This document shows positions 1 through 401 of a stretch of 410 bases of DNA, in pieces. This DNA comes from Escherichia coli. GTDB lineage: Bacteria > Pseudomonadota > Gammaproteobacteria > Enterobacterales > Enterobacteriaceae. Made by a program: the position numbers and the translations under genes. The notes beneath the pieces are model-generated. The model was not told where the DNA came from, ran no database searches, and saw only the letters and a program-made list of their open reading frames with translations. Location: assembly GCF_003334335.1 (NCBI RefSeq), contig NZ_QOWQ01000196.1, one strand, 5' to 3'. The first letter of the stretch is position 1. Each line of letters begins with the position of its first letter.

Positions 1-401
1 GCAAGCACCTCATTTTTTGTTGGGGTGCTTTTTTTCAATTCAGCGATATAGCACTCCAGTTTTTCAATGCGTGATTCGATATCATCTTTTTCTGACAGTA
101 TCGTGTTATATGCATTGTTAATTTGTATGGTATACCGATCTTCGGAACAAAGGCACTTTTCCTGTGACTGTTCATCCCCTTCACATAACCCGGCAGCAAT
201 ATCCATGAAAAACTGCTTCGCCTTCTTTTTCGCCTCAGCTTCGTAAAACTCCAGCGGGGCACCTTCAACACGATCAAGATCAATCACCACATTTGGCAAC
301 AACAGTGACGTATACCCACCCGTTTCCAGCGCTACAGTAACAGTAATCTTATCCGGGTAATTATTTATCCCTTTAACAACCAGTTCGTATTGTTTATTCA
401 T
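1..401 (-). CDS. Hypothetical protein, 5' portion only (start codon in window, 3' end beyond left edge). Visible product (133 aa): MNKQYELVVKGINNYPDKITVTVALETGGYTSLLLPNVVIDLDRVEGAPLEFYEAEAKKKAKQFFMDIAAGLCEGDEQSQEKCLCSEDRYTIQINNAYNTILSEKDDIESRIEKLECYIAELKKSTPTKNEVL...
   Basis: Manual reverse-complement translation: ATG at plus coordinates 401..399, then 133 sense codons with no stop down to position 3 (2 nt left over at 1..2). An in-frame TAG at 405..407 fixes this ATG as the first possible start. An open frame this long in AT-leaning DNA is unlikely by chance. The protein has a non-random make-up: alternating hydrophobic beta-like segments, an amphipathic Lys/Ala helix and a heptad-spaced Ile/Leu helix. 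Codon choice (CTG, CCG, GCG, AAA) looks like a Gram-negative enteric-type gene, but that is impression only. Not in the ORF track, consistent with the track needing an in-window stop. Confidence 0.78.
   Translation of the reverse strand, partial: MNKQYELVVKGINNYPDKITVTVALETGGYTSLLLPNVVIDLDRVEGAPLEFYEAEAKKKAKQFFMDIAAGLCEGDEQSQEKCLCSEDRYTIQINNAYNTILSEKDDIESRIEKLECYIAELKKSTPTKNEVL
5..35 (+). terminator. Intrinsic-terminator-like hairpin plus T-tract on the plus strand, embedded in the minus-strand coding region
   Basis: Plus-strand stem 5-11 (gcacctc) pairs with 22-28 (ggggtgc): 6 Watson-Crick pairs and one G-U wobble. Loop 12-21 (attttttgtt), followed immediately by T7 at 29-35. The loop is larger than in typical strong terminators (8 nt if a12:t21 also pair), so stability is only moderate. 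The orientation would terminate rightward transcripts entering from the left edge. Confidence 0.25.

Follow-up and report, generated by a model that had tools for sequence, protein, structure and literature searches.

A coding-strand A7 run in a prophage DUF1327/YdfR-family gene probably mirrors the U-tract of a terminator-like hairpin on the opposite strand

Genes and features of the locus

The stretch of DNA analysed here, hereafter called the window, is a whole 410-bp E. coli contig and carries the partial protein RCQ52620.1. Its matches lie in lambdoid and Shiga-toxin-type E. coli prophages, in the lysis cassette between a class II holin gene and a lysozyme gene, and the matched coding sequences are labelled 'DUF1327 domain-containing' or 'YdfR family'. 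The following features were assigned within the window:

405-410, minus strand: end of the upstream class II holin gene, last two codons (GAG TAG)
1-401, minus strand: 5' 401 nt (codons 1-133 plus 2 nt) of a 197-codon DUF1327/YdfR-family gene, with its ATG at 401-399 and leaving the window at base 1
162-401, minus strand: Pfam DUF1327 (PF07041) match to residues 1-80 (E = 3.2e-33, as scored on protein P0001, which differs from the window's protein at residue 6)
53-54, no strand: mosaic junction, placed by sequence matches on either side
29-35, both strands: T7/A7 homopolymer; on the minus strand K123 (33-35), K124 (30-32) and the first base of S125 (29), on the plus strand a T-run that closes and then trails a hairpin
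13-18, both strands: T6 run (A6 in ACA AAA AAT on the minus strand), most of the 8-nt hairpin loop at 13-20
3-30, plus strand: stem-loop from the terminator scan and folding, with arms 3-12 and 21-30, 10 pairs including one G.U (5 G-C) and a loop at 13-20 (8 nt)
3-35, plus strand: intrinsic-terminator-like element T2, consisting of this hairpin and its U-tract
10-12, minus strand: TGA that is reached in the -1 frame or by an A8 allele, six codons after K124, by direct reading

Exact copies of the window reside inside longer contigs (L088-L091), and the identical protein at full length is P0156. The surroundings can be described on contig L088, where the window copy occupies positions 2992-3401:

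2782-2997, plus strand: class II holin
3001-3594, plus strand: DUF1327 gene, 197 codons
3496-3519: hairpin T1 (AAAACGCCGCGA-ACTGCTCA-TCGCGGCGTTTT...), about 95 nt beyond window base 1; also in L001, L033 and the 329-aa type loci L009-L031
3542-3802, minus strand: convergent 86-aa ORF
3914-4447, plus strand: lysozyme

The window has a mosaic structure, in which bases 54-410 show 100% identity to an EC2-type prophage gene whose 3' part differs, and bases 1-53 match a CP55-type 3' module, which is the bearer of the hairpin. A pattern spanning this junction gave no match among viral contigs, and the window in one piece is absent from every complete E. coli genome. The ends of the contig fall 2 nt before the hairpin (window base 1) and 6 nt inside the holin gene (window base 410). 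Window sequence matches at up to nine places per genome, and the contig ends probably mark the borders of sequence repeated among several prophages of one genome.

The encoded protein belongs to the DUF1327/YdfR family by its match to PF07041 and by a match to PHROG 2091 (E = 2.3e-73), and no match to this protein was found in NCBIfam. Because the domain comprises residues 1-80 only, the tract at codons 123-124 lies outside it, in a variable C-terminal extension; many C-terminal variants, from 148 to 329 aa, occur in the family. YdfR from the Qin prophage of E. coli K-12 (P76160) shares both the N-terminal Pfam domain and the place in the lysis cassette, but this 103-aa protein is without the ~95-residue extension that bears the tract in the window's gene. 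Residues 1-72 of K-12 YdfR are reported to bind the N-terminal domain of RNase E, with possible RNA binding (PMC13232886), and binding to RNase E is the sole activity reported for this homologue.

The homopolymer runs and their expected frequency

On the minus strand, the frame reads GAA TTG AAA AAA AGC ACC CCA ACA AAA AAT GAG GTG CTT, beginning with E121 L122 K123 K124 S125. Direct reading confirms that the coding strand holds seven consecutive A's in its Lys-Lys codons (T7 at 29-35 on the plus strand), as the sequence-only reading had reported, and the second A6 run that it placed at 13-18 is likewise present, as T6 on the plus strand.

Homopolymers of seven or more bases arise in 14% of shuffles of the window's single nucleotides and in 29% when its codons are reordered (P = 0.14-0.29). 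Synonymous recoding of the same 15-residue peptide, with approximate E. coli codon-usage values, yields such a run in 28% of cases. The length of the run is therefore not unusual for the window. These frequencies are in keeping with a purely incidental run, in which two preferred AAA codons happen to precede a serine codon that begins with A, neither strand has a role at the site, and the hairpin on the other strand is a by-product of coding. The same can be said of lysine codon choice in the window's gene (8 AAA versus 5 AAG), and of a paralogous 'module B' that encodes ELNKK with an A6 run and has no hairpin.

A terminator-like hairpin on the opposite strand

A terminator scan returned a single site in the window, located on the plus strand and reading AAGCACCTCA-TTTTTTGT-TGGGGTGCTT followed by TTTTTCAATT. 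Two T's of the T7 tract close the stem of this hairpin and five trail behind. The two runs that had originally been listed as separate items, although correctly seen, are thus parts of one conserved element on the other strand, with T7 as its U-tract and T6 in its loop.

The plus-strand 45-nt segment (window bases 1-45) has a minimum free energy of -15.5 kcal/mol (z = -4.5), and none of 200 shuffled sequences is as stable. The same bases on the minus strand yield only -11.2 kcal/mol, because G.U pairs turn into C.A mismatches. This strand preference recurs among E. coli haplotypes, every one of which forms all 10 stem pairs on the plus strand, compared with 88% of paired cells on the sense strand, where the folding energy weakens to as little as -4.5 kcal/mol. 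The stability of the hairpin argues against a by-product of coding, since just 0.8% of synonymous recodings of the peptide attain it.

The position of the hairpin is also fixed. In all 15 of the 15 E. coli loci that carry a convergent ORF of PHROG 18136, the hairpin begins 22 nt past the TAG of that ORF, a constancy that again speaks against an incidental run. Enterobacter and Citrobacter have the hairpin at the same distance past the stop codon, followed there by TTTTCTTT, such that the uninterrupted T7 is specific to E. coli. No gene is called on the opposite strand in the Citrobacter locus, so the hairpin at this locus is otherwise unconstrained. The Salmonella homologue carries a different hairpin with no clear T-run.

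Covariation was evaluated with a cross-genus alignment of only 8 sequences, including those from Enterobacter and Citrobacter, in which 97.4% of cells are paired. Three stem pairs have changed on both sides (A-U to G-C; C-G to U.G to U-A). For each of the four informative measures, no more than 15 of 500 shuffles do as well as the real alignment, and for three of them only 1 of 500 does so; controls in which the register was slid pair 43-63% of cells. Among E. coli sequences alone (5 haplotypes), where the comparison has no power, covariation is not significant (320 of 500 shuffles). Compensatory conservation in Enterobacter and Citrobacter, where no DUF1327 gene overlaps the hairpin, is difficult to reconcile with a structure that merely follows from coding.

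In sum of its parts, T2 comprises a stable G+C-containing stem-loop, a U-rich tract directly 3' of it, and compensatory changes in the stem, as is typical of an intrinsic terminator. A d'Aubenton-Carafa-type terminator score is positive (d = 5-21), but the score is not relied on. Searches of Rfam found no family that matches the hairpin.

The convergent cassette and its likeness to morons

CP55-type relatives contain a convergent ORF of 87-91 aa (PHROG 18136) that is annotated in RefSeq. In the part of this ORF that does not overlap the DUF1327 gene, variable sites favour the third codon position (11 of 18), and synonymous changes number 11 against 7 that are non-synonymous; judged by this substitution pattern, the ORF looks real. 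Anatomy, position and covariation together suggest that the hairpin and its T-tail would be this cassette's own terminator. From these sequence features we infer that the hairpin would terminate transcription and that the convergent ORFs would be transcribed.

Homologues of the PHROG 18136 ORF with 58-83% identity are located in Salmonella between tail genes, in Enterobacter close to terminase and HNH genes, in Citrobacter upstream of a holin gene, and in E. coli beside other holin types. In most of these contexts the cassette is oriented opposite to the flanking late genes, and in one it lies upstream of the lysis cluster. Judging from this distribution, the ORF (85-91 aa; L080-L087) appears to behave as a mobile, moron-like cassette across four genera. 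NCBIfam gave no match for either the PHROG 18136 ORF or the convergent 86-aa ORF of the window's locus, and Pfam gave only insignificant matches for the two small ORFs. A 'DUF1823' label in phage PhiR5_1 was rejected, as it rests on a match with E = 0.042.

A leader of ~100 nt upstream of the convergent small ORF is conserved in E. coli, Salmonella, Enterobacter and Citrobacter. Its locations are as follows:

L068, 1893-1989: conserved leader
L080, L083 and L085, 1403-1503: conserved leader
L001, about 2040-2130: conserved leader

The leader contains a candidate hairpin, CGCCAGTG...CACTGGCG, with three covarying pairs and an invariant long-range CAGCC/GGCTG pairing, and it had no match in Rfam. 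Its 5' part also precedes an unrelated cargo ORF, PHROG 2572. The Citrobacter copy of the cassette adjoins two Rfam matches to the sRNA STnc100 on the minus strand (L085 2027-2228 and 2323-2531), which score 81 bits (above the gathering score) and 40 bits (below it).

Morons, reportedly described by Juhala et al. in 2000, are said to be independent promoter-gene-terminator units located between the late genes of lambdoid phages, lambda bor being one example. Like the terminators of morons, the hairpin is a stem-loop with a U-tract at a fixed, short distance past the stop codon of a small ORF that in most contexts runs opposite to the late genes. Unlike moron terminators, the predicted terminator in the window is embedded within the coding sequence of a convergent gene, DUF1327, and its own ORF is mostly deleted from the locus. 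The moron features observed are an ORF, a terminator-like hairpin and a conserved leader that recur in unrelated contexts. A further difference is that promoter scans found no consensus sigma-70 promoter upstream of either convergent ORF; the conserved leader upstream of the convergent ORFs includes only a weak -10-like hexamer.

Two terminator-like hairpins in the window's locus

In the window's locus, the PHROG 18136 ORF has been cut to its last 60-75 nt plus the hairpin, and the ORF that owns T2 is absent here as well as from the 329-aa gene type. A different convergent ORF, the 86-aa ORF belonging to PHROG 2572, lies upstream. Hairpin T1 (AAAACGCCGCGA-ACTGCTCA-TCGCGGCGTTTTTCTT; -23.3 kcal/mol) is situated 22 nt past the stop codon of this 86-aa ORF, and T2 is 142 nt past the same stop, with T1 in between. 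A simple terminator scan missed T1, probably because flanking A/T pairs absorb its T-run. Given this distance and the stronger T1 upstream, T2 would therefore be a second, possibly vestigial, terminator in this locus. The absence of the owning ORF and the greater strength of T1 both weaken the case for a present-day function of T2 here.

The T-tail of T1 is the complement of another A-run of the DUF1327 gene, located outside the window. This other run is GAAGAAAAA in the window's locus, A7 in EC2 and A8 in the 329-aa type, where 17 fetched loci have A8, 2 loci have an A7 frameshift allele (194-aa product) and 2 loci have an A9 frameshift allele (182-aa product). Since the tails of T1 and T2 are the complements of both A-runs in the extension, both runs can be viewed as antisense images of terminator U-tracts.

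Proposed origin of the A7 run

These findings suggest that the T7 tract is probably the U-tract, and the T6 run the loop, of a Rho-independent-terminator-like hairpin that lies opposite the DUF1327 gene and doubles as Lys-Lys codons. We propose that a small mobile cassette, composed of the conserved leader, the 85-91-aa PHROG 18136 ORF and a hairpin 22 nt past its stop codon, would be the source of this hairpin; in most contexts the cassette lies between phage late genes and opposite to them, in the layout called 'moron'. Most of the ORF would then have been lost in the window's locus, leaving its last 60-75 nt and the terminator. This leftover end of the cassette would now be read on the other strand within the C-terminal extension of the DUF1327 protein, where the U-tract becomes Lys-Lys and the initial base of a Ser codon. 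With regard to slippage, the run behaves like any A7, with a single inherited A6 deletion allele.

Set against the stability, spacing and compensatory changes of the hairpin, a purely incidental origin of the run appears unlikely, even though the length and codon statistics are compatible with it. The sequence-only reading had remarked that most such runs are incidental. That remark is apt insofar as this is an ordinary run of lysine codons whose length is not beyond chance, but it overlooks the coincidence with a predicted terminator U-tract on the other strand. A broader caution is that an A-run on a coding strand with a convergent gene nearby may reflect a terminator on the other strand. 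Lambdoid prophages, including those of the Shiga-toxin type, are further shown to carry in their lysis region a conserved terminator-like hairpin that had not been annotated, together with a small mobile cassette. As an intrinsic-terminator U-tract, the element is another instance of a well-known kind, and the site is ordinary and matters little alone.

Assessment of programmed frameshifting and transcriptional slippage

A different explanation is that the run serves for programmed or habitual recoding, either by -1 ribosomal frameshifting on G_AAA_AAA or by slippage of RNA polymerase on A7, to make a 130-aa isoform. Such a product would keep the DUF1327 domain and lose the C-terminal 73 residues, in analogy to the tau and gamma products of dnaX. 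With one extra A, or after a -1 ribosomal shift, the frame indeed reads KHPNKK and then a stop codon to give 130 aa, and so a truncated product would need no long alternative ORF. One fewer A yields APQQKMRCLQQMK and then a stop, 13 codons in all. The sequence-only reading had raised the possibility that a shifted frame encodes a conserved alternative C-terminus. No such terminus or trans-frame product exists in either shifted frame, given stops after 6 or 13 codons.

The sequence around the run also lacks the signals of known sites. Sites of the dnaX and IS type have an in-frame A_AAA_AAG, an upstream SD and a downstream stem-loop, and the window resembles them in having an A-rich run of lysine codons followed by a hairpin, a quick stop in the -1 frame and a truncated product. 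However, an in-frame X_XXY_YYZ heptamer is absent from the window, where the zero frame TTG AAA AAA AGC provides G_AAA_AAA and A_AAA_AAG is present only out of frame. The sole GGAG sits 18 nt upstream of the run, and there is no SD-like element at ~10 nt. Although the sense strand does carry a hairpin after the run (-11.2 kcal/mol), this starts at the sixth or seventh A, within the run or 1 nt after it. Known frameshift stimulators are spaced by 5-9 nt; with a spacing of 0-1 nt, the sense hairpin is too close to act likewise. Moreover, the structure is better on the other strand, which the G.U intermediates favour, and where the hairpin has homologues elsewhere, the T-run is interrupted and no gene overlaps it.

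An in-frame N-AAA-AAA can nevertheless shift, as exemplified by C-AAA-AAA in pDEST17, which gives 25-60% -1 frameshifting in E. coli under over-expression (PMC1851650). By analogy, some unprogrammed shifting may occur on G-AAA-AAA. For RNA polymerase, the known transcriptional slippage sites (A9 in Thermus dnaX and A9/T9 in IS elements; PMC1088944) are similar in having a coding-strand A run with out-of-frame stops nearby, but the window's run is seven bases, not nine or more, and it is not linked to a fused downstream ORF. In many bacterial genomes, coding A/T runs show signs of being selected against from about nine bases upward, which is taken to indicate transcriptional slippage (PMC1088944); the window's run does not reach this length. 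Taken together, we regard a recoding function as highly unlikely.

Tract length across strains

Variation in the length of the tract was surveyed with a gapped pattern that allows 4-11 bases between conserved flanks. Among viral contigs, 30 of 31 carry A7 and one carries A6, and all 20 of the 20 metagenome contigs carry A7 (50 of 51 overall). The segment is also carried by 136 of 5,426 complete E. coli genomes. When A6 and A8 variants of the main haplotype were constructed and compared with these 136 genomes, neither found an exact match; their best matches span 62 bases, so the tract in those matches is A7. The A6 version of a minor haplotype ('ISELKK / GGTAC') matches exactly in 11 of the 136, and the same A6 allele also occurs in an isolate contig from IMG and in two ENA metagenome contigs that come from separate samples. 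Neither the scanned contigs nor the complete genomes yielded an A8 allele.

All A6 copies share linked substitutions on one haplotype, and a single ancestral deletion is therefore the simplest reading. In that background the A6 product ends in ...ELKKAPQQKMRYLH-stop and is 148 aa long, and RefSeq annotates the gene there as a pseudogene. The allele cuts the DUF1327 protein short downstream of the conserved domain and leaves a U-tract of six. The tract has thus slipped at least once, by a one-base deletion that was then stably inherited, and this is a mutation, not a switch. A comparison of tract lengths across isolates, which the sequence-only reading had proposed, accordingly reveals a nearly invariant tract with one variant allele. 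Its designation of the run as a potential slippage site holds only in the trivial mutational sense of this one A6 lineage; signs of programmed frameshifting or phase variation were not found.

It is very improbable that the homopolymer acts on both strands, such that a one-base slip by the ribosome, by RNA polymerase or during replication truncates the DUF1327 protein, and replication slippage also weakens the terminator of the convergent cassette. If true, this arrangement would couple the expression of two opposed prophage genes and would cut the DUF1327 protein to its RNase-E-binding-type N-terminal domain. A modest version could be that habitual -1 frameshifting on G_AAA_AAA makes the 130-aa isoform during lytic growth.

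The least credible explanation is a phase-variable (contingency) tract, in which frequent replication slippage would toggle the full-length DUF1327 protein within populations: the natural A6 frameshift allele described above is what such a tract could generate, but its confinement to one haplotype is consistent with a single event, none of the 136 genomes exactly matches an A6 or A8 version of the main haplotype, A7 prevails in the scanned contigs, frequent length polymorphism in both directions is not seen, and seven bases is short for known contingency tracts. Each of programmed frameshifting, transcriptional slippage and phase variation is unsupported by the tests run.

Mosaic C-terminal extensions in the DUF1327/YdfR family

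The genes of this family are strongly mosaic. Two types of N-terminal domain, two middle inserts and several C-termini (148-329 aa) are combined, and there are two alternative coiled-coil-like modules, with or without the hairpin. Many of these genes overlap a convergent ORF by 52-68 nt. RefSeq often labels them as pseudogenes 'missing C-terminus', and the mosaic make-up of the C-terminal extensions, which are read through the 3' ends of convergent cassettes, explains these calls.
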